From: a phage
Length of the DNA stretch: 64,000 nt
Direction: 5' to 3' (one strand)
Sequence record: PZ386967.1
Part shown: positions 4,579 through 64,000 of the stretch, piece by piece
Numbering within the stretch: the stretch's first letter is position 1
How the letters are laid out: each line of letters begins with the position of its first letter
The notes under the pieces: model-generated
What the model was told of the DNA's origin: nothing
Databases searched by the model: none
The model's input: only the letters and a program-made list of their open reading frames with translations
Translations under genes and position numbers: made by a program

Positions 4579-4635
4579 ACGTATAATTCTAAACATAAGC
4601 AGTACGACACCAACTTGAAACGAAGGAACTATATC

Positions 4636-4998: not shown

Positions 4999-5025
4999 AC
5001 CCCGCTGAGGCGGGGTTTAGTTTTC
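4999..5025. terminator. Terminator hairpin between convergent genes
   Basis: ACCCCGC-TGAG-GCGGGGT followed by T-rich tract; lies between the + gene ending 4992 and the - gene ending 5017. Confidence 0.6.
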
Positions 5026-6801
5026 CAGTTCATACCGGATAAGACCACACCCCCAGATACGCCCCAACCCGGCTTCCACCGACAGCATATCCTCTGTTTT
5101 GCCTTCTATATCGTATCCAAGTTTAAGGAATTTCTCTTTCCTGAAATTGAATTTGTGTATACGTAAGCTATAGTCTGGTGTCACATATTTGTAATCAGGG
5201 GGAAGGATTTCCTTTTCAACAAATCCGTTATTCAGGTAAACATTTTTCAGACGACTGACAACACAACGATCACCAAAAGAATATACTGTCTCACCCCGAT
5301 GTCGAGCGATATAATATTTCAGCAAGCGTGAGAATGCGCCATGGCAATTGTTAGAAGCAAATCTCACCAATTCAATACCATGCACTCGTTTGGTAAACAA
5401 CATCACCGCCTGGATATTCCCAGTTTTGTCTACAAGGTGTATATAATCTGTCGCCACCACACCACCTTGTATATGGAATCGGTCGAGAAAGTCCTTGGAC
5501 GTCCTATAGGAGCCTTCCAAAATGGTATGTTGGCGAGCGTATGACAATGGTTTCCCTATCCCCAATTTTGCTTTTAGGAGTGATTTAACCACTTCCTGTT
5601 TGTCACGCCACTCATCTTCCCAGATATGGATTAATTGAATACCCTGGGATTCACAGTGCATAGTCTTTTCAAGATGGTAGTCTTTGTATCGATGTTTCTC
5701 CGAATGCCAATACAACCCATTAAATTCTATTGCCAACTTATGTTCTGGGCAGTATATGTCTATCTGGCGTGTGGTCGCCCTCCCGTCGAACATTTTACCT
5801 CTGAGGACGGAGAAATTACCAGATTCATAAACGACACCCAATGAATCCAGGTATGAACATATTTCTATTTCTGGCTGTGTTTGGCTTTGGCTGCTGGGGT
5901 ATGTGAAAGAGTTCCTATATTCTTCAGAAGAGAAATAGTGAGGTACGCCGTATTTTTCTTTTGAAATGATCCTGGTATTGGCCTGGCTTCTATCCCATAT
6001 AGCCTTTACCTTCAACGGATAATCAACCCCATATTTTAAGACGCATGTTTTCTTTCTCTTTTCTATAATGGAATTGAGGAACATTGGATGATCCACACCA
6101 TAGATCTTCCTCCAAGTCTCAATCACCCTTTCCCTCACTTCTGGCATTTTCATGACGTGTGATACGCCATAGCGTTCCATGACAGAAGCAGCCACTCTGT
6201 CCTTTATAACATCAGACTTCATAGGGTGGTCGACCCCATATTTCTTAAGGGCAGTTTCCCGTGACTTTTGTTTTACTTCTTCCAGTTGGAATATGTTGGC
6301 TACGCCATATTTCTCTGTTATGGCGTTTTCTAGGTTGGCCCGTTCTGAGCCTCCCACCTTCATTGATTCTCGTTGGCATTCTTCGGAACAAAACTTTTTG
6401 TATCTGGGCGGTTGGGCTTCCATTTCTAAGCCGACGTCAGCACCGCAAGTGGCACACTGCGACTTCGGAATATCGTACAGCCAAGCAGTTATCGCTTGTG
6501 GTTCTTCTAATAGGTCGTTGTGTGACACCACGTATCCAACAACATCAACCCCAGTATGGGCCGTGAGTAGGGGATGAGAGATAAGTTTGTAGTTCAACGA
6601 ACCATCTTTCTTCCTGAGTTTACTATCAACCCAAGAGCGGCATTCGGTTTCGGTCGTCGGGATGTCATCCAACAAACCCGGATTGCGTTTCATCGTTCCC
6701 AGCATGAATGATTTGCATTCGTCACTACAATACAACGCAGCCTTCCTGGTTGGGGTGAACGGTTTGTGGCAGCATAAACAATTTTTATCGGGGAATGGCA
6801 T
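5017..6801 (-). CDS. Free-standing homing-endonuclease-like protein: N-terminal zinc ribbon, five KYGV repeats, C-terminal PD-(D/E)XK-like nuclease domain
   Basis: CCHKPF...YCSDEC and CATCG...FCSEEC cysteine pairs; repeated ~28-aa units (EKYGVANIF, KKYGVDHPM, ERYGVSHVM, KIYGVDHPM, LKYGVDYPL, EKYGVPHYF); C-terminal IDIYCPEHKLAIEFNGLYWH...IWEDEW resembles Vsr/DUF559-type nucleases. Antisense insertion between gp18 and gp19. Likely ATG at 6801; the track starts at GTG 6816. Confidence 0.6.
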   Translation of the reverse strand: MPFPDKNCLCCHKPFTPTRKAALYCSDECKSFMLGTMKRNPGLLDDIPTTETECRSWVDSKLRKKDGSLNYKLISHPLLTAHTGVDVVGYVVSHNDLLEEPQAITAWLYDIPKSQCATCGADVGLEMEAQPPRYKKFCSEECQRESMKVGGSERANLENAITEKYGVANIFQLEEVKQKSRETALKKYGVDHPMKSDVIKDRVAASVMERYGVSHVMKMPEVRERVIETWRKIYGVDHPMFLNSIIEKRKKTCVLKYGVDYPLKVKAIWDRSQANTRIISKEKYGVPHYFSSEEYRNSFTYPSSQSQTQPEIEICSYLDSLGVVYESGNFSVLRGKMFDGRATTRQIDIYCPEHKLAIEFNGLYWHSEKHRYKDYHLEKTMHCESQGIQLIHIWEDEWRDKQEVVKSLLKAKLGIGKPLSYARQHTILEGSYRTSKDFLDRFHIQGGVVATDYIHLVDKTGNIQAVMLFTKRVHGIELVRFASNNCHGAFSRLLKYYIARHRGETVYSFGDRCVVSRLKNVYLNNGFVEKEILPPDYKYVTPDYSLRIHKFNFRKEKFLKLGYDIEGKTEDMLSVEAGLGRIWGCGLIRYELEN

Positions 6802-15302: not shown

Positions 15303-15473
15303 ATGTTTGTCGTCATCAATCTGTTCTGCTATATCTTCACGGCGTACTTCTTGGGCGCGGTATGGATCGAGACCTACAATGACCTGAAGGATGGGGAATA
15401 CGCCAACCGAATGGTTTATGTCAAGAAGTTTGTTCGTAAGTTCTGGTCCAACTTCGTTTACAAACTACCATGA
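15303..15473 (+). CDS. Small hydrophobic protein (56 aa)
   Basis: MFVVINLFCYIFTAYFLGAVWI transmembrane-like; stop overlaps the next ATG (ATGA). Confidence 0.3.
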   Translation: MFVVINLFCYIFTAYFLGAVWIETYNDLKDGEYANRMVYVKKFVRKFWSNFVYKLP

Positions 15474-16240
15474 TCCCTAAATACCCCCATCATCCATGGG
15501 GGTATTTTCTTATGAACGCACAGATCTATGACGCCCTATCGCAGGGCAACGCCTTTACCAATCCTCTCCCGTCCCTCAGCAGCGCCTCACAGGGGTTAAT
15601 CACCAGTGGTAAGGCGACTACAGCGTCACTGGCTAACACCGGAAATACGCAGATTCAGGAAGCGCTGACGGCAGGTGGGTTGACTACAGCCAAACTCAAC
15701 GAATCTACGGCGATGTTCGACTCAGCAAACACCAGCATCACCACGCTGATCAACTATGGCGACCAGTCAGTGAACGAGGCATATTCCCGCATCGGTACAT
15801 CTGTGTCGTATAAGTCCGCCCTGAAGTCTATAGGTCGAGAACCGAACAACTGTGATCTGATCAATAATGCATTTGGGGTTATTCAGAACCTCGGCAAACA
15901 GTGGATCAATACCATGCAAAGTGTTCTCACAACTATCACAAACAAGATGAATGAGTTGGCTGAATTGGTAGCTCAGGGTGTCAGTGCTGGTCTTGATGCT
16001 ATTCGGGCACTGGCTGCTGAAGTTACTCAGGCCATCGACACTGCTGTCGCATCAGTAGCCTCTATTGCTCAGGACATCACGAACGGTATTGCAGCAGAGT
16101 TAGCCCATATCCAAGACATGGTTGGTAAGTGTCTTAACTTCTCTTTTGCCAACGTGATCTCAGAGTGGGCGAAAGATATCTGCGCCGGAGGTGTCATCAA
16201 CAGCATTGGTTCCGATAATCTGAAGAACGCACTGAAGTAA
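15470..16240 (+). CDS. Hypothetical protein (256 aa), Ser/Thr/Ala-rich; function unknown
   Basis: Long ORF, start coupled to the preceding small ORF. Confidence 0.45.
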   Translation: MIPKYPHHPWGYFLMNAQIYDALSQGNAFTNPLPSLSSASQGLITSGKATTASLANTGNTQIQEALTAGGLTTAKLNESTAMFDSANTSITTLINYGDQSVNEAYSRIGTSVSYKSALKSIGREPNNCDLINNAFGVIQNLGKQWINTMQSVLTTITNKMNELAELVAQGVSAGLDAIRALAAEVTQAIDTAVASVASIAQDITNGIAAELAHIQDMVGKCLNFSFANVISEWAKDICAGGVINSIGSDNLKNALK

Positions 16241-16648: not shown

Positions 16649-16919
16649 GTTCTCATCAAAGCAACCTAAAGGTACGAGCTTCTGGAAGGGCTGGAACTCT
16701 TGCACGATGATGTCCAGCATACCCTTGTTACAAGTGGGAACGCTGGCCGACAACATCACAGGTACGGTGCGCACTTCCGGGGTCCAGAGTTCGGAAACAG
16801 AAATTATTGGCGTGACAAAGATACGACAGCTCGTAAACAAGAGCATCGAGCATGCCAACAACAATCTACTGATCCCGCGCATCAGGGTCACAAAATATCT
16901 CCACAGCAAAGGTGCTATT

Positions 16920-18707: not shown

Positions 18708-20216
18708 ATGGCAGACATCCAGATTGTTAAGGTTAACGAAGTCCGCATGCGTTGCATCGCAGATCTTTCTATCAGGGAAGAACTGAATGACTACTTCAAA
18801 TTCGAAGACCCGAACTTCGTTCCCAACCCCTTCTCTAAATGGGACGGGGTTGTTCGCTTGTTCACCAAGTCATCCGGCCTGATTGATATCGGCCTACTGT
18901 TTGAGGTGTTCAAGTTCTGCAAGAACAACAACTACACCATTGAACTGGATCCGGCTCTGAAGTACATTCAGGACATCCCAGACCAAGAAATCCATGACTT
19001 CATCAACAGTCTGCATCCAAAGATCCGCACCGAAAATCACGAATATATCGATGCCGAGACTCGTGACTACCAGTACGACACCATCGCCAAGGCTATGCGT
19101 CAAACCAGATGCGTCTGTGAACTGGCTACGAGTGCCGGTAAGTCCTTTATTCTGTATGTCATGGCGCGGTACTACAGGCAGCGCAGAGAAGCTCTCGAAA
19201 GTCCTCTGAAGACGCTTATCGTGGTTCCGTCAATTCACCTGGTCACTCAGCTGTACGACAACTTTGAAGAGTACGCACACGGCAGTGATTGGAAGCCCGT
19301 TGTCAACACTCAATTGATCTTTGAGGGCGCGACAAAGGAAATCAGCAAACCAATCGTCATCAGTACATGGCAGGGTATTCAAGACCAGCCGAAGGAATGG
19401 TTCCACCAGTTCGGTGATATCGTGGTGGATGAAGTGCACACCTCCAAGTCTGAGAAACTGTCTTACATCCTAAACAACTGCATCTATGCCGACCAGCGCC
19501 TGGGGGTTACAGGTACGCTGGCGAATACCAAAGTTGCCGGGCTTCAGGTGGTGGCTCACTTCGGGGCGTACCATAAGATCATCACGGCTCGCGATCTTAT
19601 CAATCTCGGGTACGCCACTGACATCAAAGTGAAGATGATTCAGCTGAAGCACACTCCGGCGGATGCTGTTGGTCTAGACGGGGATTATTCCAAGGAAATA
19701 GAATACCTTATCACACACCAGTCCCGCAACGAACTGATCGCCAAGATGGCACTGAATCTGAAAGGAAACGTGGCCATCATGTTCGAACGTATTGATGGTC
19801 ACATGATGGTCGTGTATGATATGCTGAGCGCAGTCAAGCCCAACGTGTTTGTCATCAACGGGGAAGTGAAGATCGAAGACCGCCGCCGCATACAGAAAGC
19901 GATGGAGGATGGAGAGGACATCACCCTGTTGGCATCATACGGGACAATGCAGCAGGGAGTGTCGATCAAGAAGCTACACCACCTTGTACTGGCACACCCG
20001 AGCAAGTCATATATCCGCGTCATACAGACATTGGGTCGTCTGATGCGTCAGCACTCCTCTAAGGACGTCGCGTGGATATGGGACTTAGTGGATGATGCAT
20101 CGTACAACGCCAGCACGAACCACGCTCTTAGGCACTCTCACGAGCGTTACAAGTTTTACCTGGCAGAGCGCCACCCTGTGGAATTCATGAAGGTGGCGCT
20201 GGGTAATCACGATTAA
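18708..20216 (+). CDS. uvsW: UvsW-like SF2 helicase
   Basis: ATSAGKS, IVVDEVH, GVSIKKLHHLVLAHPSKSYIRVIQTLGRLMR and WIWDLVDDA match T4 UvsW; RBS GGGAG. Confidence 0.85.
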   Translation: MADIQIVKVNEVRMRCIADLSIREELNDYFKFEDPNFVPNPFSKWDGVVRLFTKSSGLIDIGLLFEVFKFCKNNNYTIELDPALKYIQDIPDQEIHDFINSLHPKIRTENHEYIDAETRDYQYDTIAKAMRQTRCVCELATSAGKSFILYVMARYYRQRREALESPLKTLIVVPSIHLVTQLYDNFEEYAHGSDWKPVVNTQLIFEGATKEISKPIVISTWQGIQDQPKEWFHQFGDIVVDEVHTSKSEKLSYILNNCIYADQRLGVTGTLANTKVAGLQVVAHFGAYHKIITARDLINLGYATDIKVKMIQLKHTPADAVGLDGDYSKEIEYLITHQSRNELIAKMALNLKGNVAIMFERIDGHMMVVYDMLSAVKPNVFVINGEVKIEDRRRIQKAMEDGEDITLLASYGTMQQGVSIKKLHHLVLAHPSKSYIRVIQTLGRLMRQHSSKDVAWIWDLVDDASYNASTNHALRHSHERYKFYLAERHPVEFMKVALGNHD

Positions 20217-21616: not shown

Positions 21617-21634
21617 TCAATCTCCAGCCTGATG

Positions 21635-21673
21635 CTATAATGTGTGGGCGGGGCGTTCCCCGCCTATTTGAAA
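21635..21673 (+). promoter_or_regulatory. Promoter -10 (TATAAT) followed by 5'-leader stem-loop
   Basis: TATAAT at 21635-21640, then GGCGGGG-CGTT-CCCCGCC hairpin and CTATTTGAAATG, the same hairpin-leader arrangement seen at 33273 and 33832. Confidence 0.4.
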
Positions 21674-25902: not shown

Positions 25903-27921
25903 ATGTCAGATTTTAAGCCCTTCGCAGTAGCTGTCAACAATAACGTGCTGGCCATGTCAGCAACTGGTCTGTTCATGACCAACATCGATAAAGATGCTCT
26001 GTGGGATCTGTATCTGTCTTCTTTCCCTGCTGGCACTAACCCGCTTTATCGTGAGCGTACCGAGCACGACTGCACCTGCTGTAAACAATTCATCCGTAAT
26101 ATCGGCGGTGTGGTCACCATCGACTCCGACCTGAACGTGATCTCTATCTGGGATAACATTCAGCTGGGTAACGAATACGACGTTGTCGCTGCGGCGCTGT
26201 CAGCATATGTTAAGCAGCACGCAATCGTCGACGTGTACTTCAACGACACCAAGAAAGTTGGTGTTGAGTCGAATCACGAAATGAAAGACGGTATTGTCCG
26301 CACCTACAACCACTTCCACACCGACCTGCTGGGTAGCTATGTTCTGCGGGCAGATACCATCGCTTCTAAGAAGGGCGAAATCCGCCAGGCGATTGAAGTG
26401 TTTGAGCGCGGTCTGCGCGAACTGTCTCTGGAATCGGCTGAAATCGTTCTGGAATTGATTGACCAGAATTCTCTGTATCGCGGTGAAGAGCACAAAGCGG
26501 CAGTGCAGGCGTTCGTGGTGAACAAGACCCTGTACGAACAAACTGCAGAAGAGAAACGCGCTCTGTGGGCTTGGCGCACTGGCTACCGTGCAAACGGTCA
26601 TACCCCTCACGGCATTCGTAATACCGTGATTGGCTCTCTGCTGGTAGACCTCAATGAAGGCCGGGATTTGGAAACCGCCGTGAAGTCCTTTGAAGCCAAA
26701 GTCGCCCCGACGAACTACAAGCGCCCAACCGCGCTGGTCACGAAGTCGATGATTGAAAACGCGCAGAAAGAAGTCGAAGCGCTGGGTCTGACTGATTCAC
26801 TGGGTCGCCGTTATGCCGTGTATGACGATCTGACCATCAACAACGTTCTGTTCGCCGATCTGGCAGCTCAGAAGAAGATGGACCCGTTTGCTCAGCTGGC
26901 GTCTGAAGTGAAGACTCCGACCAAGTCCCTGGACAAGGTTGAAGAGATCACGATCGACGACTTCCTGGCCAACGTGTTGCCAAAGGCGCATTCCCTGGAA
27001 GTGCTGGTCGAAAACTCTCACATTGGCAACCTGATGTCCCTGATCGCTCCGGCTACCGCAGGCGCTCCTAACCTGTTCAAATGGAACAACGGTTTCAGCT
27101 GGTCATACAACGGTGAAGTGGCCGACTCCATCAAAGAGCGCGTGAAGACAGCAGGCGGCAACGTTGACAGCTTCCTCCGGGTGTCACTGGCTTGGCATAA
27201 CAACGACGACCTGGATCTGAGCATGAACGATCCTCTTCACAACCACGTATATTTTCGCAACCGTCGTTCGACAACTGGCGCAACTCTGGACATCGACATG
27301 AACGGTATGGACGGCATTGACCCAAATCGCCGTCCGGTGGAGAACATCTTCTTCAGCGATGAACGCAAGCTACGTGACGGGAATTATGAGTTCTATGTCA
27401 CCAACTTCAACAAGCGTGAAACCTGTGACGTTGGTTTCGAAATCGAAGTCGAATACAAAGGCCAGACCAAGCGCTTCTCACACCCTGGCCTGGGTAACAA
27501 AGATCGCACGTTGGCTGTTGTGGTTCAGGTTCGCGCTGGTCAGGTGGTTGACATCAGTTCTACCCTGAAAGACGACGCTCGCTCTCAGGAAATCTGGGGC
27601 ATCAAGACCTCCGTCTTCCAGAAGGTACAGCTGGTTCTGAACTCACCAAACCATTGGGACGGCGAGCAGACGGGCAACAAGCACGTGTTCTTCATCCTGG
27701 AAGGTTGTGCTAACCCTGTCGGCACCCGTGGTTTCTATAACGAATATCTGAAGCCGGAACTTGATAAACACCGCAAGGTTTTTGAAATGTTAGGTGGTAA
27801 GATTAAAGTACAGCCAAGCAATGAGCAGCTGTCCGGTCTGGGCTTCTCTACCACCCAACGCAACCACGTGTTCGTGAAGGTGAGCGGTTCGTTCAACCGC
27901 ACTGTGAAAGTTGTGTTCTAA
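25903..27921 (+). CDS. Hypothetical large protein (672 aa), function unknown
   Basis: Long ORF after the cassette; N-terminal HDCTCC motif and C-terminal Asp-rich DIDMNGMDGID segment; no confident family assignment. Confidence 0.5.
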   Translation: MSDFKPFAVAVNNNVLAMSATGLFMTNIDKDALWDLYLSSFPAGTNPLYRERTEHDCTCCKQFIRNIGGVVTIDSDLNVISIWDNIQLGNEYDVVAAALSAYVKQHAIVDVYFNDTKKVGVESNHEMKDGIVRTYNHFHTDLLGSYVLRADTIASKKGEIRQAIEVFERGLRELSLESAEIVLELIDQNSLYRGEEHKAAVQAFVVNKTLYEQTAEEKRALWAWRTGYRANGHTPHGIRNTVIGSLLVDLNEGRDLETAVKSFEAKVAPTNYKRPTALVTKSMIENAQKEVEALGLTDSLGRRYAVYDDLTINNVLFADLAAQKKMDPFAQLASEVKTPTKSLDKVEEITIDDFLANVLPKAHSLEVLVENSHIGNLMSLIAPATAGAPNLFKWNNGFSWSYNGEVADSIKERVKTAGGNVDSFLRVSLAWHNNDDLDLSMNDPLHNHVYFRNRRSTTGATLDIDMNGMDGIDPNRRPVENIFFSDERKLRDGNYEFYVTNFNKRETCDVGFEIEVEYKGQTKRFSHPGLGNKDRTLAVVVQVRAGQVVDISSTLKDDARSQEIWGIKTSVFQKVQLVLNSPNHWDGEQTGNKHVFFILEGCANPVGTRGFYNEYLKPELDKHRKVFEMLGGKIKVQPSNEQLSGLGFSTTQRNHVFVKVSGSFNRTVKVVF

Positions 27922-27965
27922 ACCTGATTTGAAATTGTAACCCATTCATCATTGAGGATAGTAAA

Positions 27966-28337
27966 ATGTTTGATAAAGCAACCCGTATGAAACTGCGCTT
28001 CGAGTCTAACAAAGGCCTGTTGTCTGTTGAGCAGGTCTGGGACCTGAGCCTGACTGCCCTGAACGAAATGGCGAAAGGTCTGAGCCGTCAGGTGAAAGCA
28101 GCAGAAACCGATGAAGAAGATTTCATTGGTACCAAAAGCAACGTTGACTCCGAACTGCAGCTGCGCTTCGACGTTGTCAAGCACATCATCGGCGTTAAGC
28201 TGAAAGAACGTGACGACAGCAGAGACGCGGCAGAGCGTAAGGCGAACAACCAGATTATCCTGGAGCTGATCCAGCGTAAGAAACAGCAAGAGCTGGAAAG
28301 CAAATCTGTTGAAGAACTGGAAGCACTCCTGAAATAA
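27966..28337 (+). CDS. Hypothetical coiled-coil protein (123 aa)
   Basis: Charged helical sequence; RBS GAGGA. Confidence 0.45.
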   Translation: MFDKATRMKLRFESNKGLLSVEQVWDLSLTALNEMAKGLSRQVKAAETDEEDFIGTKSNVDSELQLRFDVVKHIIGVKLKERDDSRDAAERKANNQIILELIQRKKQQELESKSVEELEALLK

Positions 28338-28360
28338 TCTGTCTGACCTCAGCCTGAGCA

Positions 28361-28387
28361 ACCCCGCCATGTGCGGGGTTTCTTTTG
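28361..28387 (+). terminator. Rho-independent terminator
   Basis: AACCCCGC-CATGT-GCGGGGTT followed by TCTTTT. Confidence 0.7.
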
Positions 28388-28397
28388 GACAAAGAAT

Positions 28398-28772
28398 ATG
28401 AAACCTGTTATATGCGATTACTGTGGCCTCCCAGCCGAATTCGTCGGTGGTGATGTTCTCTACCCTCATCACCCTGACCTCCGCAATCTGAAGTTCTGGG
28501 TGTGCACTCCATGTGATGCCCGTGTCGGTTGCCATGCCCATGGCGACGGCAGACAACCTTTGGGAAGGATGGCGAATGCCGCTCTCCGTGCTGCTAAGCA
28601 AAAAGCCCATAGATCGTTTGACCCATTATGGAAAAGCGGAGAGAGGAGCAGGAGCGACGCTTACAGTTGGCTGGCGCATAAGCTGGGGATTAAGAAGCGC
28701 GATTGCCATATCGGCTTGTTCGATATCGACATGTGCCGTAAAGTAGTGGAGGTCTGTAAACAAATATCATAG
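28398..28772 (+). CDS. Zinc-ribbon protein (DUF3268-like)
   Basis: CDYCG...CTPCDARVGCH cysteine pattern near N-terminus. Confidence 0.4.
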   Translation: MKPVICDYCGLPAEFVGGDVLYPHHPDLRNLKFWVCTPCDARVGCHAHGDGRQPLGRMANAALRAAKQKAHRSFDPLWKSGERSRSDAYSWLAHKLGIKKRDCHIGLFDIDMCRKVVEVCKQIS

Positions 28773-32174: not shown

Positions 32175-32216
32175 TCCAACGGGCGGGGCAACCCGCCTTT
32201 CTTTGGGAGAAGTAGC

Positions 32217-33259: not shown

Positions 33260-33318
33260 TTCTATAACTTTGGGCGGGGTATGATTACCCCGTCTATTTG
33301 AAATGCAGGAACTATACC

Positions 33319-33825: not shown

Positions 33826-33877
33826 ACCCACGGCGGGGTATGATTACCCCGTCTATTTGAAACCAAGAGACTATATC

Positions 33878-37179: not shown

Positions 37180-37235
37180 TCAATAACCTCGGGCGGCTTA
37201 TCATAAAGCTGCCCTTTCATTTGAGAGACTATATC

Positions 37236-37899: not shown

Positions 37900-38178
37900 A
37901 TGGCTGGCGTATGGTGTGATGTCTTGCTGGTTCGTTACAGCGTAAATGGGTGTGTCCAAGTGCGTTCCGCCTTCTATCCAGTACCGTTCTCTTCCGGTGG
38001 CCTGACGGTTCAGCGAGTTCTCGATATTGAGGCAGAACTGAACAAAAAGTCTTTTGGTGTACAAGTCCTGGGGTACGATCTTCTGAATGAAATGATGGTT
38101 GAAGAAGACAAAGTTGAGACTGTCATTGGTCGTCAGGAGATGGAATCGTTAATCTCCAAATCGGAGGTCAAATCATGA
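37900..38178 (+). CDS. Hypothetical protein (92 aa)
   Basis: Tightly packed ORF immediately after the preceding stop. Confidence 0.35.
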   Translation: MAGVWCDVLLVRYSVNGCVQVRSAFYPVPFSSGGLTVQRVLDIEAELNKKSFGVQVLGYDLLNEMMVEEDKVETVIGRQEMESLISKSEVKS

Positions 38179-38426
38179 GTCCCAACATGGCAATAATCTG
38201 GGTTGGTGAATCGTCAATGCGTTGTCCTCACAAGACGATCACCTTCTTGGACGATGAGCGCCTGGCCGAACAACGGGTTGAAGTCCGCGAAATGCAGGTT
38301 TCTTCAAAGGTGGTGAACGTTCCTGTGACTAATATTCAGACTTTTAAGCCTTGCGTCAGAGTGATTTGTGAACGCTGTGGATGTTATGGCACGATGACGA
38401 CTGAAGACGTGGCGAAAGGCTATTAA
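38175..38426 (+). CDS. Hypothetical Cys-rich small protein (83 aa)
   Basis: Start overlaps the preceding stop; C-terminal CERCGCYG motif. Confidence 0.35.
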   Translation: MSPNMAIIWVGESSMRCPHKTITFLDDERLAEQRVEVREMQVSSKVVNVPVTNIQTFKPCVRVICERCGCYGTMTTEDVAKGY

Positions 38427-38516
38427 TTCCGCTTTATTCAATAAAATTTGTTAGTTAAACTGTAGTCCTCTTGTAGTGAACATGAAAGTAAACATTAACC
38501 CAACGGAGAAATCCAG

Positions 38517-38795
38517 ATGAATCGTACTGAATTTGTTGCCCACATTGCTTCGACCCAGAACATCACCAAAGGCGAAGCGGAGAAAGTAGTGGCATCCTTT
38601 ATCAACGGTGTTAAGACTGCAGTTGCTGCAGGCGCATCTGTACAGCTGGTCGGCTTCGGTGCGTTCGAAGTGAAACACCAAGAAGCGCGTGAAGGCCGCA
38701 ACCCTCTGGACGGCCAGACCATTCAGATCGCGGCGAAAAACGTTGTGAAATTCAAAGTGGGCGAAGGTCTGAAGAACGCTGCCAACGGCAAGTAA
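38517..38795 (+). CDS. hup: HU/IHF-family DNA-binding protein
   Basis: Canonical HU sequence: MNRTEFV...GFGAFEVKHQEAREGRNP..GQTIQIAAKNVVKFKVGEGLK. Confidence 0.85.
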   Translation: MNRTEFVAHIASTQNITKGEAEKVVASFINGVKTAVAAGASVQLVGFGAFEVKHQEAREGRNPLDGQTIQIAAKNVVKFKVGEGLKNAANGK

Positions 38796-38846
38796 TTCTA
38801 TCTGACGCGCGGCCAGGCTCTGCAATACAGGGCATGGCAAAGAGAA

Positions 38847-38876
38847 AGCCGGAGCATTGTACTCCGGCTTTTTCGT
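38847..38876 (+). terminator. Rho-independent terminator after HU gene
   Basis: AGCCGGAG-CATTGTA-CTCCGGCT followed by TTTTCG. Confidence 0.7.
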
Positions 38877-38923
38877 TCTTGGGGATCGGGTAAACTATAG
38901 GCGAATCCCATAGGAGGAAGAAA

Positions 38924-40642
38924 GTGACAGCATTCAACCAATATACCAAGGCGCTTGACGGCGTCGGACCAGTCAGCATAGACCGCATCAAGTCTCTTGC
39001 CACTGAGTTCTTCCCGTATGACACCGCCAACCCCGGCCAGATGGAATGCATCGTTGAAGCCATTGATGCCCTTGTGAATAAGAAATTCAAACACGTGATC
39101 ATCGAGGCTCCGACTGGTGTAGGTAAATCCCTCATCGGCACTACCATCCATAATGTGCTTCGCCATTTGGTTCTTGAGCACAACCCGTATGGTCAGTTCC
39201 GCACGTCTATCACGACGCCGACCAAAGGTTTACAGGATCAGTATGCAGCAGAGAAAGCCGTGGCGATAGACATCCTGAAGGGCAAGAAGAACTACCGTTG
39301 CCACATCAGTCCCGACCTATACTACAACGCCATTCAGTGCCGTATGGCATGCCGTGATGGCCACTGTAGTAAGAATCGTTGCCCATATGTTCAGGCGCGT
39401 CGACAGTGGACCGACGTCTCCTCCCTGCGCTGCACCAACGCCGCCATGATGGTGGAGATGTGTACGACGATTTGTATGAAGCCGGAAAACCGTGCCGATA
39501 TGCTGATCCTTGACGAGTGTCATAAGATGCCCTCTACGCTCCTAGAGCATACTATCATGGAATACAACATAAAGGCTGTGGAAGGGTTGCTTACGATCCC
39601 CGAGGGAGTGCCTATCGTGGAGACCATCAAGGATATCATCATCCGCACAGAGAACTATGAATTGGGCAAGCTGTATTCCCTGTCTGGTGAGATGCATGCG
39701 ATATTTGATGAACTACACGGCAAGGTTGAAGCCCTGTTGGAAACTCTTGAAGAACTGGTAGAGGATGAGCGCCTGACTGAAGCCCAGGTGATGAAGCTGT
39801 CTGATATTATTGATAATCTTCACAACCTCAGTGACTACTGCGGTATCATGGGGCAGACCAACGCCAGCACTTTCATCGTACAGGAGAAGGACAAGGGTAT
39901 GATTCAGTTCAAGCCTGTCATCGCCTCTGATGTATCCCAGTTCGGTCTGTTCCGCAAGGGTGACTACCACGTTCACATGTCGGCGACCATCTGCGGGATT
40001 GACTCGTACGCCCGGTCACTGGGTATCCGCGAGGGTGAGTACCACAAGATACAGATCGGCAACCCTATCCCGATTGAGAACCGGAAAGTCAACTACATGC
40101 CCATCATGAAGATGACAGCGAACATGGGTGACTACGAGATGAAGAAGCTGGCTGAATACGTGGATGAAATTATCGCGTTCCACCCTGGGCAGTCTGGCAT
40201 CATTCACACAGTCAGTTATGACCGCGCCCTGGCTCTACAAAAGTTCAGTAAGTACCGGAATATGATTCACGTTCCTCGTACTCGTAAGGCTCTGATGGAC
40301 ATCATGGAAAACGCGTTCAGGACGAAGACGCCTTGTGTCATCGCCAGTCCGGCCATGGAAGAGGGGTATGACTTCAAAGGCGATTATAGTCGATTTCAGA
40401 TCTTGATCAAGGTGCCATACGATTACCTTGGTGATCCTCTGGTGGCCCACGTCAACAGTGTGGACCCATCGGCGTACTTCAGGATGGCGGTACTGCGTAT
40501 CGTTCAGATGTGTGGGCGTTCGGTCAGGGGTGTGAATGACTGGGCTGCGACGTACATCCTTGATTCTTCTTTTGAATCACTGATGATGCGCAACCCAGAG
40601 TTCTTCCCCGCTTGGTTCACTGATGCCGTGTTTGAGGTTTAG
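38924..40642 (+). CDS. DinG/Rad3(XPD)-family SF2 helicase with Fe-S cluster cysteines
   Basis: Q-motif PGQ, Walker A APTGVGKS, four Cys between motifs (CHISPDLYYNAIQCRMACRDGHCSKNRC), DEAH box LDECH. Confidence 0.75.
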   Translation: MTAFNQYTKALDGVGPVSIDRIKSLATEFFPYDTANPGQMECIVEAIDALVNKKFKHVIIEAPTGVGKSLIGTTIHNVLRHLVLEHNPYGQFRTSITTPTKGLQDQYAAEKAVAIDILKGKKNYRCHISPDLYYNAIQCRMACRDGHCSKNRCPYVQARRQWTDVSSLRCTNAAMMVEMCTTICMKPENRADMLILDECHKMPSTLLEHTIMEYNIKAVEGLLTIPEGVPIVETIKDIIIRTENYELGKLYSLSGEMHAIFDELHGKVEALLETLEELVEDERLTEAQVMKLSDIIDNLHNLSDYCGIMGQTNASTFIVQEKDKGMIQFKPVIASDVSQFGLFRKGDYHVHMSATICGIDSYARSLGIREGEYHKIQIGNPIPIENRKVNYMPIMKMTANMGDYEMKKLAEYVDEIIAFHPGQSGIIHTVSYDRALALQKFSKYRNMIHVPRTRKALMDIMENAFRTKTPCVIASPAMEEGYDFKGDYSRFQILIKVPYDYLGDPLVAHVNSVDPSAYFRMAVLRIVQMCGRSVRGVNDWAATYILDSSFESLMMRNPEFFPAWFTDAVFEV

Positions 40643-41406
40643 TAACCCGCAACGAAGGACAGATGGCACTTGACATTCGGTTCCAACGACGTCACAGAAA
40701 CCGTCATATTGTCCGTATCTTGGCTGAAGTCAATGGTGGCGAGAGGTTTGGTCTGAATATGGTTGTAAACACTGTAGATCAGATCCTCGCCACGATACCC
40801 TACCTTCCCGTCGGTGTCTTGCCAATGACCCAGTGTCTCATCGTAGACATGCACTCTGAACTCGATCATATGGAAGAGTGCCTTGGGGATGTCCTTGAGT
40901 ACGCTGGTGCCAACCACGGGAATCTCTATGCTGGAATCATTGGAGTTCCCTTCATATACCGAAGCCCATGCAAAGGTGGGATCTCCCCCAGCAACAGGGG
41001 TTCGCTTCCAGTATTGGAATTCTGGGTTGCCTGAAGCGTTCTTCTGAAGTAGAATGACCTCACCACCTTTGAAGTTCGAAGTATCGATGTCGCCTCGCTG
41101 AAGTTCATCTGCTGGAGATCCAATAAATTTCCAGCCTTCGCGATCCAGTAAAGACTTATAATAGTCGGTGAACACGTTGCTGTCTTCTGCATCGTTGATG
41201 GCATCTTTGAGACCTTGGCCTGTCACCATCTCGTTGAGCTTCAACCACATGTTCTTGACAGCAGACGCTGCTGCGACTTGTCCAGCAGTCCCACCTGCAG
41301 CATAATCATAGATGATATCTTCTGACTTGATAGCATCATAGATAGAGAGGAGCAATTGCTCAATCTGCGGGGCGGTGAGACTGAAACGATATGCGCGGGG
41401 TGTCAT
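40639..41406 (-). CDS. Hypothetical late protein (255 aa), possibly structural
   Basis: Minus-strand ORF from internal ATG 41406 with RBS AAGAGGA; canonical T4 late promoter TATAAATA about 36 nt upstream on the same strand. Confidence 0.45.
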   Translation of the reverse strand: MTPRAYRFSLTAPQIEQLLLSIYDAIKSEDIIYDYAAGGTAGQVAAASAVKNMWLKLNEMVTGQGLKDAINDAEDSNVFTDYYKSLLDREGWKFIGSPADELQRGDIDTSNFKGGEVILLQKNASGNPEFQYWKRTPVAGGDPTFAWASVYEGNSNDSSIEIPVVGTSVLKDIPKALFHMIEFRVHVYDETLGHWQDTDGKVGYRGEDLIYSVYNHIQTKPLATIDFSQDTDNMTVSVTSLEPNVKCHLSFVAGY

Positions 41407-41441
41407 AGTTTCATTCCTCTTTCTATAAAACCAGTTTGGGA

Positions 41442-41449
41442 TATTTATA
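41442..41449 (-). promoter_or_regulatory. T4-type late promoter (TATAAATA) on minus strand
   Basis: Exact TATAAATA (plus-strand TATTTATA) upstream of the minus-strand gene. Confidence 0.5.
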
Positions 41450-41451
41450 TC

Positions 41452-41979
41452 ATGATAGAAATTTATTCTGACGGGGGTTCTAACCCGAAGACCAACCAGG
41501 CCGCAGGCTGGGCATTTGTCATCAGGCCAATAACGGGTATGCAATGGAAGGTGTTCTTCGGCCATCTACCTCCCCCGTCCACTAACAATATCGCCGAGTT
41601 GTTGGGTGTGACCAACGCATTGAAGCTACTGTGGGCATTCTCAGGAAAGGGTGAGCGCAGAATACCAAAGGCAACAATTTGGTCTGACAGCCAATATGCC
41701 ATCAAGAGTGTCACCGAATGGCGAGCGAAGTGGGAGTATCAGGGTTTCCCAGAAAAGAACGTTGAACTCATCAAAGATCTGTTCAGAATCTATGATCTCG
41801 TTTGTTCAATTTGTGATGTTGAACTAAAATGGGTTAAGGGTCATGCGGGGCACGAAGGCAACGAACTTGCCGATGACTGGGCCACAGCAGCCAAAAACGA
41901 CAGCAACTTCCTGATTGAGAATGACAAGATCTCAGTGAAGAAGGTTGTTGGATCTTTTGATGAATTTATCGGTATCTGA
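41452..41979 (+). CDS. rnhA: Ribonuclease HI (bacterial-type RNase H)
   Basis: IYSDGGS...GWAFV, TNNIAEL, IWSDSQY, WVKGHAGHEGNELADDWA correspond to RNase HI catalytic motifs. Confidence 0.8.
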   Translation: MIEIYSDGGSNPKTNQAAGWAFVIRPITGMQWKVFFGHLPPPSTNNIAELLGVTNALKLLWAFSGKGERRIPKATIWSDSQYAIKSVTEWRAKWEYQGFPEKNVELIKDLFRIYDLVCSICDVELKWVKGHAGHEGNELADDWATAAKNDSNFLIENDKISVKKVVGSFDEFIGI

Positions 41980-41990
41980 GGGCTTTCATA

Positions 41991-42782
41991 ATGGGAATGA
42001 ACTTCGTGGACAGAGGGGAGAATGTCGTCAAATATTTCACGGACGAAGACAACGAGCGTGTCATTAGTATCCTTCGTGATTGGATCCCCGCCCGCAAGAA
42101 AGCACTTGCTGAGGGCACCAGGCTTCCAAAGATCCCCAACTATGTTGCTCTGCAGGTCCAGCGCATCATCACCAAGATGAGTACCCGCTACAACTATCGC
42201 GACTATCCCTTCCGTGAAGACATGGTCTCTGAAGCAATAGTCAACATCCTGCGCTACCTCCACACCTTTGACGTCGAACACATTGGAAAGAAAGGGAAGA
42301 TCAACTTCTTCTCTTGGGTGACCATGTGCGCTGATCGATCATTCGCTCGTAAACTGAATATCGAAGAAGAACACACGTACATCAAATTGCGCTCATTTGA
42401 AGAGGCGGGTGGGTTCGCAGGCCTGGCAGACGATCCCGACTTCCAACAAGAGATCTTTGTTGACGCGACAGGGATTGGTATGGACTTCCGTGAGCGTATC
42501 GGTAACTTTGAGAACAAAAAGGACGCTCAAAGGCAGAAGGAGCGAGAGAAGGTGGAGGCGGCTCGTCTCGCAGAATCGAATAAAAAGATTGCGAAAGGCA
42601 TACTTCAATACATGGCGCAGGCTAAGAATACGGTAACAGCGCAGGCCGAAGACAATTCAGATCAGGACTTTGGCAAAACCCAATTCAATCTGGAAGATGA
42701 TATCTGTGCGATGGAACCAGATTGGGAAGCCCTCAAACAAAGATTAGAAGAACGGGAGAAAAAGAATAATGGCGATTGCTAA
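41991..42782 (+). CDS. gp55: Late sigma factor (gp55-like) with acidic/coiled C-terminal extension
   Basis: ISILRDWIPARKKALAEG...MVSEAIVNILRYLHTFDVEH...FFSWVTMCADRSFARKL parallels T4 gp55 LQAIIDWKTEL...[20 protein letters not shown]...AYITQACFNAFVQRIKK. Confidence 0.7.
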   Translation: MGMNFVDRGENVVKYFTDEDNERVISILRDWIPARKKALAEGTRLPKIPNYVALQVQRIITKMSTRYNYRDYPFREDMVSEAIVNILRYLHTFDVEHIGKKGKINFFSWVTMCADRSFARKLNIEEEHTYIKLRSFEEAGGFAGLADDPDFQQEIFVDATGIGMDFRERIGNFENKKDAQRQKEREKVEAARLAESNKKIAKGILQYMAQAKNTVTAQAEDNSDQDFGKTQFNLEDDICAMEPDWEALKQRLEEREKKNNGDC

Positions 42783-43884
42783 AATCGGCGATCTGCATAT
42801 CGGGAGCCGTAATGGTTCCCGATACGTTCGCGACTTCATCAAGAACTACCTCATCAATTATTTCATCCCTGAACTTGTCGCCTCCGACATCCATGAGGTC
42901 TGGCAGTTTGGTGACACATTTGACGTCCGCAAATTCATGTACGGGCGTGACAAGGACTGGTTGAAAGATGAGCTGACTCCGGCGCTGAAAGCTGCTGGGA
43001 TCAAGTGGAATGGTATTGTTGGCAACCACGACATCACCCTGGAAGAGTCTAACCGCATCAACTGGCCATCCTACCTGAACGAACTCGACCCAGATGTATA
43101 CTGCTATTATAGCGAACCGACCGAAGTGATGATCGAGGGTGTCAAGACTCTGCTCCTACCGTGGATCAACAAGGAGAACTATGATGCGTCTATTAAGGCG
43201 TTACAAGATACAGACGCCGAGTACTGTTTTGCGCATCTGGAGTTGGCAGGGTTCAAAATGTACCAGTCCTCTACTTGTGATCACGGTCAGATCGACGTTG
43301 CGTTGCTTTCCAAGTTTACCAGGGTCGACACGGGGCATTTCCATACCCGTTCGATGGAAGGTAACATTCAGTATCTTGGGACTCCGTATCACCTGAACTG
43401 GGAAGACTACAAAGATGGCACCAACCGTGGCTTCTATGTGGACGACATGCGCGGCGGTGAGGTATTCATTCCCAACAGCGAGCACCAGACGTTGTTCCGC
43501 TATGTGGAATATGATTACACCAAGTTGTCCTCAGACGATGAGGGTAACTGGATCGACCCGGAATGGTTGAACACAGGCTTGGGTATTGAAGGGCAAATCG
43601 TTAAGGTTATTGTACAGAATCGCGACAATGCTAAGCATTATGAAAAGTTCTGTGATGCAATGAAGCGATGCAAGTGTATTGACTACAACTTCATCGACCG
43701 GACTATTACCGTAGCGGCTGAGAAGGTTGAGGTCACCGAAGAGATGGTGGCAACCGACGCAGTGGAAGTCCTAAAGAAGGATATCCGCGCCGGGAACAAC
43801 ATCCAGCGCCCTGAAAACGTCTGCAAGCTAGCAGAGCACTTCTACAACGCTGCCCAACAACGCCTGAATACACTGGATGCATAA
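42769..43884 (+). CDS. gp47: Recombination endonuclease subunit (gp47-like, Mre11/SbcD family)
   Basis: IGDLHIG, QFGDTFDVRKF, IVGNHD, GHFH and YLGTPYHL match T4 gp47 phosphoesterase motifs. Confidence 0.85.
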   Translation: MAIAKIGDLHIGSRNGSRYVRDFIKNYLINYFIPELVASDIHEVWQFGDTFDVRKFMYGRDKDWLKDELTPALKAAGIKWNGIVGNHDITLEESNRINWPSYLNELDPDVYCYYSEPTEVMIEGVKTLLLPWINKENYDASIKALQDTDAEYCFAHLELAGFKMYQSSTCDHGQIDVALLSKFTRVDTGHFHTRSMEGNIQYLGTPYHLNWEDYKDGTNRGFYVDDMRGGEVFIPNSEHQTLFRYVEYDYTKLSSDDEGNWIDPEWLNTGLGIEGQIVKVIVQNRDNAKHYEKFCDAMKRCKCIDYNFIDRTITVAAEKVEVTEEMVATDAVEVLKKDIRAGNNIQRPENVCKLAEHFYNAAQQRLNTLDA

Positions 43885-46222
43885 CATGACTCAAAGTACA
43901 GATATCCTGGCCAAATTTGGCAATCTTTTGAAGGAAGCTGACACCCCGGTAGAGGTGGAAGTCCCATTTGAAGTGCGTGATAACGTTACGCACAAACTGA
44001 CTTTCCGCAAAGGTCGCGCCAAGAACTTCCGCTCCATCGGCAATCAGTTCATGGAGATTGATTATCAGCGCAACCCAGCCACCCTTGTCACGTCTGATGA
44101 CAACGGCGCGGGTAAATCCACGATGTTGGTATGGCTGCTGTTCTTCGTACTGTACAACACCACGTACAGTAAGAAGGAGAAGAAGGCAGGCCTGGTTAAC
44201 TCACAAAGCCGCAAGGAATGTGTGGGTGAGGTAGAGTTTGCCTGTCGTGGTAGTGAATGGAAAGTTCGCCGGGGTATCAAGCCCGACTTTGTTGAAGTCT
44301 ACCAGATGGTGGACGGTAAGTGGTTGCAGATCGATAACGAAGCAGCCAAGGCCGACATGAACAAGTACATCGTGAACCTCATCGGTGTAGACCAGAAGAT
44401 GTTTGAGAACTCTCTGGTGCTGGGTAAAGAGAAGTTCATTCCGTTTACGGAGATGTACACTGCCGACCGTCGCGCCATGGTGGAGACAATTTGGGACTTG
44501 GGCTTCTTCAGCCTGATGAACGAAGATGTCAAGGCCGCCATCAAAAAGGCAAATACAACTCTGGACTCCATATCTAACGAATGCGCACTGAAGGTTATTG
44601 ACCACACCAACAAGAAGACGCAGCTTCAGCAGATCGAGCAATCCAACGCTCTGATCCAACAGCAGTCGGCCGATATCCTTGTACAGCAACAGGAAGCCCT
44701 GAATTCCCTGGATGCTGACATCGCTTCCCAGAACGAAGAGCGCAGCCGCCTCACTGCGGTTGAGTTCGAAGCCACCCAGGAAATGAAGACGGTAGAAAAT
44801 CGCCTGAATGATGAATCCATGGTGGAGATCGAGGCTATCAAGAAAGACTTTGATGCCAAGATCCAGGCGGTGAAGGATGCCGCTCAGGAAAAGGCCGATG
44901 ATTATGAGCGCATCGAAGTGTCTACTGCGGAGCATGAACTTCAGGTCTTGCGTGACCGTGCCTTTACAGTGGCCGAAAGCAAGAACACCCTGCTCACCGA
45001 GCGCAACACAAACCTGGACGCCCTGAACGCTGCTATTCAGCGCCGCCAGCAGGGTGAGAACTTCCGCATCAAGTTCCAGACCGAAATGGACGGACATCAG
45101 TCGGCCATCAAGCGCTTCCACGACATGGGGACTTGCCCTACCTGTACCCAACTGGTGTCTGATGACACCAAGGCGCGGATTGAGAGTGAGTACAATCCTC
45201 AGATCCAGGAACTACAGTCGAAGTTAGATCAACTAGACAAAGTTACCGCCGATATCAATGTCCTGATCGATGATCACAAGGCTCAGGATGATAAGTTGGT
45301 TGCTGACATTGCTGTGTTGGACACTGAACTGGATGCAATGCGCAAGCAGGCTGACGAAATCGTTGACAACATCAAGCAGCTGCGCCGTGATATTCAAGGT
45401 TTTCATGATGCTGCCACGATTGAGTGTAATTCACTGAACCGTGAATGTCAACAGAAGATCCTTGACATCCGTAAGGCACTGAACGTTCGTTTTGAAGACA
45501 TCACTGCGTCACTACAACAAACTCGAGAGAATGCCGTCAGCGGGATTAAAGCCGTCGATGATAAGATCGCCGAGCTGAAAGCCCGTCGTGCTCCTCTCGT
45601 GGCGTCTATTGCCGATCTGGAGCGTAAACTGGCTGTACAGCCAACACCTACCACCGACCTGGAGAACTCTATCGCTGCGTTGGAAGGTGAACTGGAGTCT
45701 CTGTATGAACTCCGTGAAGATGCAGATGAGGAACTCCAGGACTTACAGCACCTGCTGTTCTTCTTGAAAGATGACCAGACCAAGGCGCGTATCATCGCCC
45801 TGTATCTGCCATTCCTCAATAGCAAGATCAACGAGTATCTTGAAGCCCTCAACATGTTCTTGGATATCGTTGTTGACGATACCTTTGAGATCACCATGAG
45901 CGCAGCAGGCCGCAAGGGGCAGAGTATCTTCTCCCTGTCTACTGGCCAACGCAGTCGTCTGAACCTGGCTGTGACATTAGCTCTGCGCGATGTGGCTAAC
46001 CTCAAGGCATCGGTGCAATGTAACCTGTTTGTCCTGGATGAAATCCTTGAGAACATGAGCGAGCGCGGGGTGCAGGAATCGGTTGAGATGTTGAAGCATA
46101 AGTTCGGCGGGAACAACCTGTTTGTTATTAGCCAGCGCGAACAGGAGTTCCAAGAATACTTCCAACACAACATTCGCTACGGCCTGCGAAACGGCCTGAC
46201 TGAAGTTATCAAGAAGGATTGA
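43877..46222 (+). CDS. gp46: Recombination endonuclease ATPase subunit (gp46-like, Rad50/SbcC family)
   Basis: Walker A DNGAGKST, long coiled-coil with zinc-hook CPTC, signature STGQRSRLNLA, Walker B FVLDEIL. Confidence 0.85.
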   Translation: MHNMTQSTDILAKFGNLLKEADTPVEVEVPFEVRDNVTHKLTFRKGRAKNFRSIGNQFMEIDYQRNPATLVTSDDNGAGKSTMLVWLLFFVLYNTTYSKKEKKAGLVNSQSRKECVGEVEFACRGSEWKVRRGIKPDFVEVYQMVDGKWLQIDNEAAKADMNKYIVNLIGVDQKMFENSLVLGKEKFIPFTEMYTADRRAMVETIWDLGFFSLMNEDVKAAIKKANTTLDSISNECALKVIDHTNKKTQLQQIEQSNALIQQQSADILVQQQEALNSLDADIASQNEERSRLTAVEFEATQEMKTVENRLNDESMVEIEAIKKDFDAKIQAVKDAAQEKADDYERIEVSTAEHELQVLRDRAFTVAESKNTLLTERNTNLDALNAAIQRRQQGENFRIKFQTEMDGHQSAIKRFHDMGTCPTCTQLVSDDTKARIESEYNPQIQELQSKLDQLDKVTADINVLIDDHKAQDDKLVADIAVLDTELDAMRKQADEIVDNIKQLRRDIQGFHDAATIECNSLNRECQQKILDIRKALNVRFEDITASLQQTRENAVSGIKAVDDKIAELKARRAPLVASIADLERKLAVQPTPTTDLENSIAALEGELESLYELREDADEELQDLQHLLFFLKDDQTKARIIALYLPFLNSKINEYLEALNMFLDIVVDDTFEITMSAAGRKGQSIFSLSTGQRSRLNLAVTLALRDVANLKASVQCNLFVLDEILENMSERGVQESVEMLKHKFGGNNLFVISQREQEFQEYFQHNIRYGLRNGLTEVIKKD

Positions 46223-46980: not shown

Positions 46981-47077
46981 GGCTGAAGGGCACTAAATAT
47001 CACGTGCCCTTTATCTTTTAACCCCTGTCAGGAGGCTCAAGCGAGCTGCAAGTCGACAAAACATAAGGAACGCCATC

Positions 47078-52154: not shown

Positions 52155-52162
52155 TATAAATA
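52155..52162 (+). promoter_or_regulatory. T4-type late promoter (TATAAATA)
   Basis: Exact TATAAATA 26 nt upstream of the ATG at 52188. Confidence 0.5.
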
Positions 52163-52187: not shown

Positions 52188-52493
52188 ATGAAACCTTTTA
52201 TCGAATATTTTAAAGAACAAGCCGCTCAACCCCAGACCCATGCTGGTGTCCAGGGTAAGACCGTATCCATCACCAAGCAAGCTGACGGCACCCAGTGGTG
52301 TTCCGGCGCTACCGTGACCCAGATTACCCCTGACAATCAGGCGGATGTATATAACCTGGAGTTAACCAACGGCAACACTATCAAGGTGAAGCTGACCCCA
52401 GACCAGACTCACGGTATCTCCCAAGGTCAGGAAGTCGTTGCTGTTCATGACGGCTTCGAATTCTTCTTTGGCAAGTCTATCGACAAAGACTAA
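52188..52493 (+). CDS. Internal-protein-like small protein with capsid targeting sequence
   Basis: MKPFIEYFKE|QAA resembles T4 IPI/IPII/IPIII N-termini; canonical late promoter and RBS GAGGAGA upstream. Confidence 0.5.
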   Translation: MKPFIEYFKEQAAQPQTHAGVQGKTVSITKQADGTQWCSGATVTQITPDNQADVYNLELTNGNTIKVKLTPDQTHGISQGQEVVAVHDGFEFFFGKSIDKD

Positions 52494-62740: not shown

Positions 62741-64000
62741 TTACTCTTTGGTGCCGAAATTACCACCATTGTCTTTTAATTCTGCCTTGATGTCAATCTC
62801 ACCCGGACCCGTAGGGGATGCAGGGGTTGCACCTGACAGAGAAGAAGCGCGACCAGCACCTTCGGCATATATGATGTTACCATTGATCGTCTGAGCGACA
62901 GTCAGTTTGTCAGCGATTATCTCAGTCGTTAGAATCTTAGGAACCTTCAATGTCCCACCGACCTCCAGAGTCTCGCAGATAATGCGCAGAATATTCTGCG
63001 CTTGCATTTCCGCTAGGTCACTGAATTTCATCAGCGCTGTGCCCGCAACCACGTTGGAGTAATTGTTGGAATGCAAATGATAGACCTCACCTGTCTTGCG
63101 CTGAACTTCAGTTCCTTTGACCGTCAGGTTGTGGTCCCCGCCGACATAATAACGCTTGTTGAACATCGTCAGGTCATAGTGGTCTTTGACGGACTTGTTG
63201 ACCACATCACCATCCGGCAACATTTGCTTGTAAGACCCAGACTTATGCATCCAGTGAAGACGTTCACCACCAGGGGTGTCGTCCACTTCCATAATATGCC
63301 CAGCTCGGGACACCATGACGTTATTGTACGGGTATTTAGATCCACCCGCAGCCGGAACCATGGTTTCTCCAGTGTTGTCAATATCCTGTACTCGCCCAGT
63401 AGGAGCCGGAGTCGGTTGTTCCTTTGGGGTACGATCTGGGATAGGTTCTGACCATTTACCATTCTGCTGCGCAGGCGCGGCTGTGGCTGTGTTAGCAGGA
63501 CCAGGCCAACGATATCCCAAGACCGAAGAACGTCTGAAACGACTGACCTTCACTGAATCGGATTGGTTGCCACCAATACACCAGACATAGTTTGCATCGA
63601 ACTTCTGCACAAACGCTACGTGTCCAAATGTGGGGTTGTTACCACGCCGGAAGACTACGATAGCGCCATATTGTGGTGCTGACAGTGCAGTACCCCATGT
63701 AAGGTAAGATCGGGCAAGAGCGGAGCGTGTAGACGTGTATCCAGCCTGTATCATAACCCAACCCACGAACGCCGCACACCACGACACTTCATCTTCAGAA
63801 GCACCAAGGGAGGTTGTCTTGTGATATTCTATAATGCGCGGGTTGTTGTTGAACTTTCCGGCATACTCCTTGATACCTAATTCGCCACGAGCGATTGTCA
63901 TCCACTTCTCTGGATCATACCCACCAACAGGTGGTTGTGGATCTGGTTGTGGTTCGTCTTCTTGTTTCACAGGAACGTCAGTGACAGCGTTGTACGCCTG
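62741..64000 (-). CDS. Baseplate hub-like protein with CHAP/NlpC-P60-type peptidase domain; N-terminus beyond window end
   Basis: SWCAAFVGWVMIQAGY...GAIVVF...GHVAFV Cys-His pattern; minus-strand reading frame stays open to position 64000; adjacent to gp25. Confidence 0.55.
   Translation of the reverse strand, partial: QAYNAVTDVPVKQEDEPQPDPQPPVGGYDPEKWMTIARGELGIKEYAGKFNNNPRIIEYHKTTSLGASEDEVSWCAAFVGWVMIQAGYTSTRSALARSYLTWGTALSAPQYGAIVVFRRGNNPTFGHVAFVQKFDANYVWCIGGNQSDSVKVSRFRRSSVLGYRWPGPANTATAAPAQQNGKWSEPIPDRTPKEQPTPAPTGRVQDIDNTGETMVPAAGGSKYPYNNVMVSRAGHIMEVDDTPGGERLHWMHKSGSYKQMLPDGDVVNKSVKDHYDLTMFNKRYYVGGDHNLTVKGTEVQRKTGEVYHLHSNNYSNVVAGTALMKFSDLAEMQAQNILRIICETLEVGGTLKVPKILTTEIIADKLTVAQTINGNIIYAEGAGRASSLSGATPASPTGPGEIDIKAELKDNGGNFGTKE

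Follow-up and report, generated by a model that had tools for sequence, protein, structure and literature searches.

The late promoters of phage T4 carry TATAAATA at -13 to -6 (Nolan 2006), and those of Aeromonas phage Aeh1 carry CTAAATA from -12 (Nolan et al. 2006, PMC1524935). The Ackermannviridae, formerly the ViI-like phages, are distant relatives of T4. For Dickeya phage LIMEstone1, 33 late promoters were called in silico from the T4 consensus, and the record of this phage (HE600015.1) places a 'putative late promoter' before ORF093, on a TAAATA orthologous to the one described below (Adriaenssens et al. 2012, PMC3296691). Mass spectrometry of purified virions detected the product of that gene, ORF93, with 8 peptides and 40.8% coverage. 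Table S2 of the paper on Shigella phage AG3 gives three putative late promoters, with the site treated here not included, and according to the CBA120 paper the ViI-like phages had no late consensus identified as yet. No transcript mapping, 5'-end or time-course data for Ackermannviridae were found in the literature searched. Some promoter coordinates in the LIMEstone1 record look misplaced when the sequence beneath them is read: the 'putative late promoter' at 63130-63135 (12698-12703 of contig L001) reads CTCATC and lies within ORF087. Opposed promoters can also disturb one another, and the pR/pL pair of coliphage 186 is an example of such transcriptional interference.

We analysed a stretch of 64,000 nucleotides of phage DNA (record PZ386967.1; the window), in which a virion gene and an RNase HI gene diverge from a gap of 45 bp. 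Over positions 40000-43000 the identity to Salmonella phage vB_CECAV_050 is 98.7%, and 55 phage records give matches; by its sequence, the source of the window is an Agtrevirus of the family Ackermannviridae. The gap very probably contains a T4-type late promoter for the minus-strand gene, as the earlier note on this DNA had proposed. This is supported by the enrichment of the motif class, the conservation of the site in 23 relatives, the presence of the LIMEstone1 product in virions and the presence of gp55 and gp45 genes in the window. The fuller reading, in which a gp55-dependent late promoter in the gap serves the virion gene and polymerases reading through from upstream transcribe RNase HI and gp55, is in our judgement likely. 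The late promoter at this junction is already known as a prediction and the arrangement is ordinary tight phage packing. What the junction provides is good support for calling one late promoter, that of a virion gene, and it adds little beyond annotation.

The divergent junction and its genes

The features of the region are given below; the gene map of the window was transferred from the nearest annotated relative.

38848-38873, both strands: two-way terminator hairpin (-12.2 kcal/mol on the plus strand, -14.7 kcal/mol on the minus strand)
38924-40642, plus: helicase gene, upstream of the minus-strand gene (gene map, profile matches)
40639-41406, minus: virion structural protein gene, 255 aa, phrog_3833, function unknown (ORF and relatives' annotated start)
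41407-41451: gap of 45 bp separating the divergent start codons (sequence)
41415-41419, minus: GAGGA ribosome-binding site of the structural gene, 8 nt before its ATG (sequence, relatives)
41435-41437, minus: predicted late transcription start at about 41436 (an A), with a leader of about 30 nt (T4 rule, Nolan 2006)
41437-41441, plus: weak UGGGA ribosome-binding site of RNase HI (pairing energy)
41442-41449, minus: TATAAATA, predicted -10-type element of a gp55-dependent late promoter, with its TAAATA core at 41442-41447 (motif class and conservation)
41452-41979, plus: RNase HI gene, 175 aa, type 1 RNase H (PF00075, phrog_531)
41991-42782, plus: gp55-like late sigma factor gene (phrog_234, E 3e-52)

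Judged by its sequence, the plus-strand gene is a genuine RNase HI, and the earlier identification of it holds. The match to Pfam PF00075 scores 88.9 bits against a cut-off of 25.8, and the alignment to E. coli RNase HI extends over residues 2-149, including the segments SDGG, NIAEL, SDSQY and LADD, which correspond to E. coli D10, E48, D70 and D134; D7 is the counterpart of the catalytic D10. Since this alignment supports the start codon from residue 2, the RNase HI start is secure; AG3 annotates a shorter RNase HI of 146 aa. The gp55 gene begins 11 nt past the end of RNase HI and the two are probably co-transcribed, with gp47 and gp46 further downstream. The sliding clamp gp45 is also encoded in the window (phrog_223, E 2e-64). 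A gene for gp33 is absent from the 64 kb of the window and is encoded in the relatives AG3 and CBA120.

The start codon of the minus-strand gene is secure because relatives annotate the same start and GAGGA lies 8 nt upstream. Its product matches phrog_3833 with an E value of 5e-160 and is 92% identical to LIMEstone1 ORF93. Sequence matches to Pfam and the PDB were sought for this protein and none were found, and a single-sequence AlphaFold model had a mean pLDDT of 44, too poor to use. The stop codon of this gene overlaps that of the helicase gene by 4 bp. The same 4-bp overlap between a minus-strand gene lying in a plus-strand cluster and its convergent plus-strand neighbour is seen at 20213-20216 and 27918-27921 as well as at 40639-40642, and no terminator was found between any of these three convergent pairs. 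The minus-strand gene at 27918-28709 is a homologue of a 263-aa hypothetical protein of vB_CECAV_050 with an in-frame stop here, and may be a pseudogene or have differing boundaries. Another minus-strand stretch, 5020-6795, lies between the tail sheath and tail tube genes and resembles a homing endonuclease of 490 aa. With the endonuclease of the nearest relative it shares only 42% identity, suggesting that the mobile insert here is a different one.

The two start codons lie at 41406-41404 (minus) and 41452-41454 (plus), confirming the reported separation of 45 bp between the divergent genes. On the plus strand, 41442-41449 reads TATTTATA, and its minus-strand reading is TATAAATA, which had been described as close to the RNase HI ATG and is in fact separated from it by only 2 nt (TC). 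It stands 35 nt upstream of the minus-strand ATG. The LIMEstone1 gap is identical in sequence to that of the window, and the 6 bp annotated there are the TAAATA core, matching 41442-41447. The two ribosome-binding sites differ in strength, GAGGA pairing with the 3' end of 16S rRNA at -6.0 kcal/mol and UGGGA at -4.0 kcal/mol, which ranks 52 of 67 genes. UGGGA is the complement of the TCCCA that trails the promoter element. The RNase HI initiation region folds less than its shuffles (z = +1.85), and the predicted late leader has no excess structure relative to shuffles (z = 0.07).

We propose that gp55, the phage sigma factor, would direct host RNA polymerase to the gap promoter and into the minus-strand virion gene, with a start near 41436 and a 30-nt leader that contains GAGGA. 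In the plus-strand reading, the same DNA would be the translation start of RNase HI, composed of the weak UGGGA, the A/U-rich and unstructured TATTTATA spacer and the AUG. Both signals fit in 45 bp because a promoter of this type needs about 8 bp and no -35 box, and its upstream side could sit within the RNase HI coding sequence. Upstream of TATAAATA the DNA encodes RNase HI and shows conservation only in that capacity, which is compatible with the lack of a -35 element and not diagnostic of it.

From the overlap of promoter and start codon, the earlier note had gone on to conclude that early and late expression interfere with one another in time. That conclusion does not follow, since a promoter acts at the level of DNA and a start codon at the level of mRNA, and the two are not in competition for one molecule; the timing of RNase HI expression was, moreover, an assumption. 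Interference would be possible only between RNA polymerases, through head-on encounter or occlusion, and would depend on where RNase HI transcription starts.

A different translation start recurs in the window. The near-identical cassette GGAACTATATC-ATG is present in 11 copies with up to two mismatches (0.29 expected), all on the plus strand, at 4625, 13287, 14079, 33308, 33867, 37225, 48426, 48724, 54626, 61211 and 61462. It is mostly found ahead of small genes of unknown function, and at 4625, 14079 and 61211, where no gene is mapped, it may mark unannotated small ORFs.

The motif in the window and in related phages

Across the window the T4 8-mer is not enriched, either exact or with one mismatch. 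Two exact copies of TATAAATA occur in 64 kb, compared with 0.74 expected from whole-window shuffles, 19 of 100 of which reach two, and with 2.3 expected under composition-preserving shuffles of 50-nt blocks; allowing one mismatch gives 23 sites versus 24 expected. Both exact copies are on the sense strand, 25 and 35 nt ahead of start codons, a placement reached in block shuffles by at least one copy with P = 0.10 and by both with P = 0.006. The T4 8-mer alone is weak evidence, and the family motif taken with its conservation is stronger. The other exact copy, at 52155-52162 (plus), lies directly past a terminator-like hairpin and 25 nt before ORF 52188-52493, a phrog_4048 gene cut to 101 aa where the nearest relative has 189 aa.

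Every hexamer on the sense strand between 15 and 60 nt upstream of 68 gene starts was included in a scan, and TAAATA was by far the top-ranked, with 10 of its 21 occurrences within this 2.2% of sequence space (p = 7e-12). The longer TAAATAYC is seen 9 times where 1.9 are expected, and none of 100 shuffles is as high. All 18 sites of the form [ACT]TAAATA are on the strand of the local genes and 11 of them stand 17-42 nt ahead of a start codon, the genes behind them including those for tail sheath, tail tube, scaffold, endolysin, the helicase at 18708 and the junction gene. TAAATA sites before genes precede mostly late genes. The base preceding TAAATA is C in eight of the 18 sites, A in five and T in five, and it is A at the junction, where the sequence reads ATAAATATC, a regular member of the class. 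The major head gene is preceded by CTAAGTA and the portal gene by CTAATTA, and the working late consensus of this phage, as read from its sequence, is therefore (C/A/T)TAA(A/G)TA, often followed by YC and close to the CTAAATA of Aeh1. The minus-strand genes inside plus-strand clusters that end at 16720, 20584 and 28709 have no clear TAAATA upstream.

A few sites of this kind lie in other settings. Good CTAAATACC sites fall within coding sequence at 15477-15485 (plus), at the start of gene 15470-16240, and at 63339-63331 (minus), in the gp5-like ORF 62741-63970; these may be internal late promoters or chance matches. At 46988-47016 (plus), a hairpin followed by a T-rich run closes the gp46 cluster and has CTAAATA in its loop, 78 nt before gene 47078, so that it looks like a terminator with a late-type promoter superimposed.

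The comparison set consisted of 23 related contigs, in which the structural protein is 100% to 60% identical to that of the window and RNase HI is down to 52% identical. All 23 loci share the order helicase, opposite-strand virion gene, RNase HI, gp55, gp47. The distance from RNase HI to gp55 is about 730 bp greater in five of them than in the rest, a shift consistent, at the level of sequence, with an inserted gene, and Salmonella phage Marshall has a homing endonuclease annotated in this stretch. The gap measures 39-47 bp and contains TATAAATA in 14 relatives and TATAAGTA in the other nine, the latter variant matching the CTAAGTA before the major head gene in the window. Throughout the set, TATAA(A/G)TA keeps a distance of -1 to +2 nt to the RNase HI start codon and precedes the structural ATG by 31-38 nt; in two contigs (L022 and L023) the motif and the RNase HI ATG have one base in common. 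When representatives of six clades are compared, the invariant positions of the gap are TATAA, TA, the CCA that follows and one T, with the remainder diverging, so that seven of the eight positions of the promoter element are unchanged. The GAGGA ribosome-binding site is present in all relatives and the GG of UGGGA is invariant. Because the conserved block doubles as the initiation region of RNase HI, translation of that gene could account for some of the conservation.

Plus-strand transcription and alternative explanations

A sigma-70 consensus scan of 38000-44000 returned nothing in the gap and a total not above that of shuffles, and a credible conserved plus-strand promoter was found neither in the gap nor within the opening 240 bp of the minus-strand gene. 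Two plus-strand sigma-70 candidates, 41027-41055 and 41278-41306, were rejected; they are inside the coding sequence of the minus-strand gene, and the -10 box of the second varies with codon drift in relatives. Terminators were sought with our own hairpin-plus-T-run scan. The nearest strong upstream terminator on the plus strand is the hairpin at 38848-38873, which is also the first that the minus-strand late transcript would meet downstream, and the LIMEstone1 record annotates a terminator at the matching place. No plus-strand terminator was found between 38873 and about 47010, and hence none between the helicase gene and RNase HI. Because the gap has no credible promoter and no terminator follows the helicase gene, read-through is the likelier source of RNase HI transcripts. 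RNase HI and gp55 would then be transcribed from upstream of the helicase gene, antisense across the virion gene, and the late transcript of the virion gene may, for its part, continue in antisense across the helicase gene. We regard read-through as probable, on an argument from absent signals, which is weak evidence.

Possible promoters of the plus-strand genes were also seen elsewhere in the window. Several of these genes are preceded by a -10-like CTATAA(T/C/A), a GC-rich hairpin (e.g. gggcggggtatgattaccccgtc), CTATTTGAAA and a ribosome-binding site, at about 21625-21672, 32180-32216, 33270-33318, 33830-33877 and 37190-37235. Promoter-plus-stem-loop cassettes are described in T4-type phages, and these resemble them. 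The sequence TAAACTNTAG, shared before the HU-like and helicase genes, was discarded as a candidate element, having two exact copies and, with one mismatch, 8 copies versus 6.8 expected, which is not an enrichment.

Plus-strand transcripts probably must cross the late-promoter site, and the promoter might also act as a brake, with gp55-driven polymerases colliding with or occluding transcription of RNase HI and gp55 and lowering their late expression. The footprint of a promoter-bound polymerase, roughly -30 to +20, would extend over 41416-41466 and take in the first RNase HI codons, and the order late promoter, RNase HI, gp55 is constant in 23 of 23 relatives; such conservation of gene order is, however, expected anyway among genomes so closely related. 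Opposite-strand late genes in early regions are common in T4-like phages and we know of no brake function for them, and other ways of shutting down early genes late in infection are known. We consider a braking role unlikely. A brake on gp55, if true, would be modestly interesting.

We give slightly less credence to the idea that RNase HI has its own sigma-70 promoter in the gap, mutually exclusive with the late promoter, with TATAAA at 41424-41429 as its -10 box and the -35-like GTGTCA at 41400-41405. The sequence does offer GTGTCA, 18 nt and TATAAA, and the clade of L008-L015 with L021 offers CTGACA, 16 nt and GATAAA at the same place. However, TATAAA is without the key final T of a -10 box and went unreported by the consensus scan, the -10 hexamers vary in other clades (GATAAA, AAATAT, TTTATA, CATTAC), and the -35-like letters are largely dictated by the ATG-ACA/TCA start of the minus-strand gene. 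An overlapping opposed promoter on the other strand was not found in the gap by consensus scan, the candidates being weak and unconserved.

More doubtful again is the suggestion that the junction promoter is a conserved feedback device, in which gp55 would fire head-on against the transcription of RNase HI and gp55 and so limit its own synthesis, with antisense RNA running across the helicase gene to 38848-38873. Finally, it is very improbable that there is no promoter at all, and that TATTTATA is an A/U-rich spacer aiding the RNase HI translation start and matching T4 by chance: one exact copy so placed does occur in about 10% of shuffled windows, and the RNase HI initiation region is unusually unstructured, but the sequence of an A/U-rich spacer need not be fixed, yet in 6 clades 7 of the 8 positions do not vary, the junction sequence matches the top-ranked pre-gene motif of the window and stands as far from a virion gene as is usual for that motif, and without it the virion gene has no visible promoter.

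Comparison with described promoters

The late promoter call can be set beside the systems named at the outset. As at pR/pL of coliphage 186, the putative minus-strand start would be in the path of plus-strand transcription; unlike 186, the junction has no credible second promoter, and repression here is putative only. The site before LIMEstone1 ORF093 is orthologous to the junction site, and its annotation as a putative late promoter was likewise made in silico only.

The match to the T4 late promoters, which are read by gp55 with gp33 and the gp45 clamp, is exact over all eight bases of the junction site. As in T4, the predicted promoter would need no -35 box, it stands before a virion gene, and homologues of gp55 and gp45 are encoded nearby. 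The phage differs from T4 in that the core shared by its sites is shorter, (C/A/T)TAA(A/G)TA, while the full 8-mer, present only twice in 64 kb, is rare. Late-type sites in this family are better described by the shorter consensus than by the T4 8-mer, and this consensus should aid promoter annotation in the Ackermannviridae, phages that are used for biocontrol of Salmonella, E. coli O157 and Dickeya. Most late-gene sites in the window, such as those before the tail sheath, tail tube and scaffold genes, read CTAAATA and so resemble the late promoters of Aeh1, whereas the junction site, in common with four other sites in the window, reads ATAAATA, with A in place of the C of Aeh1.
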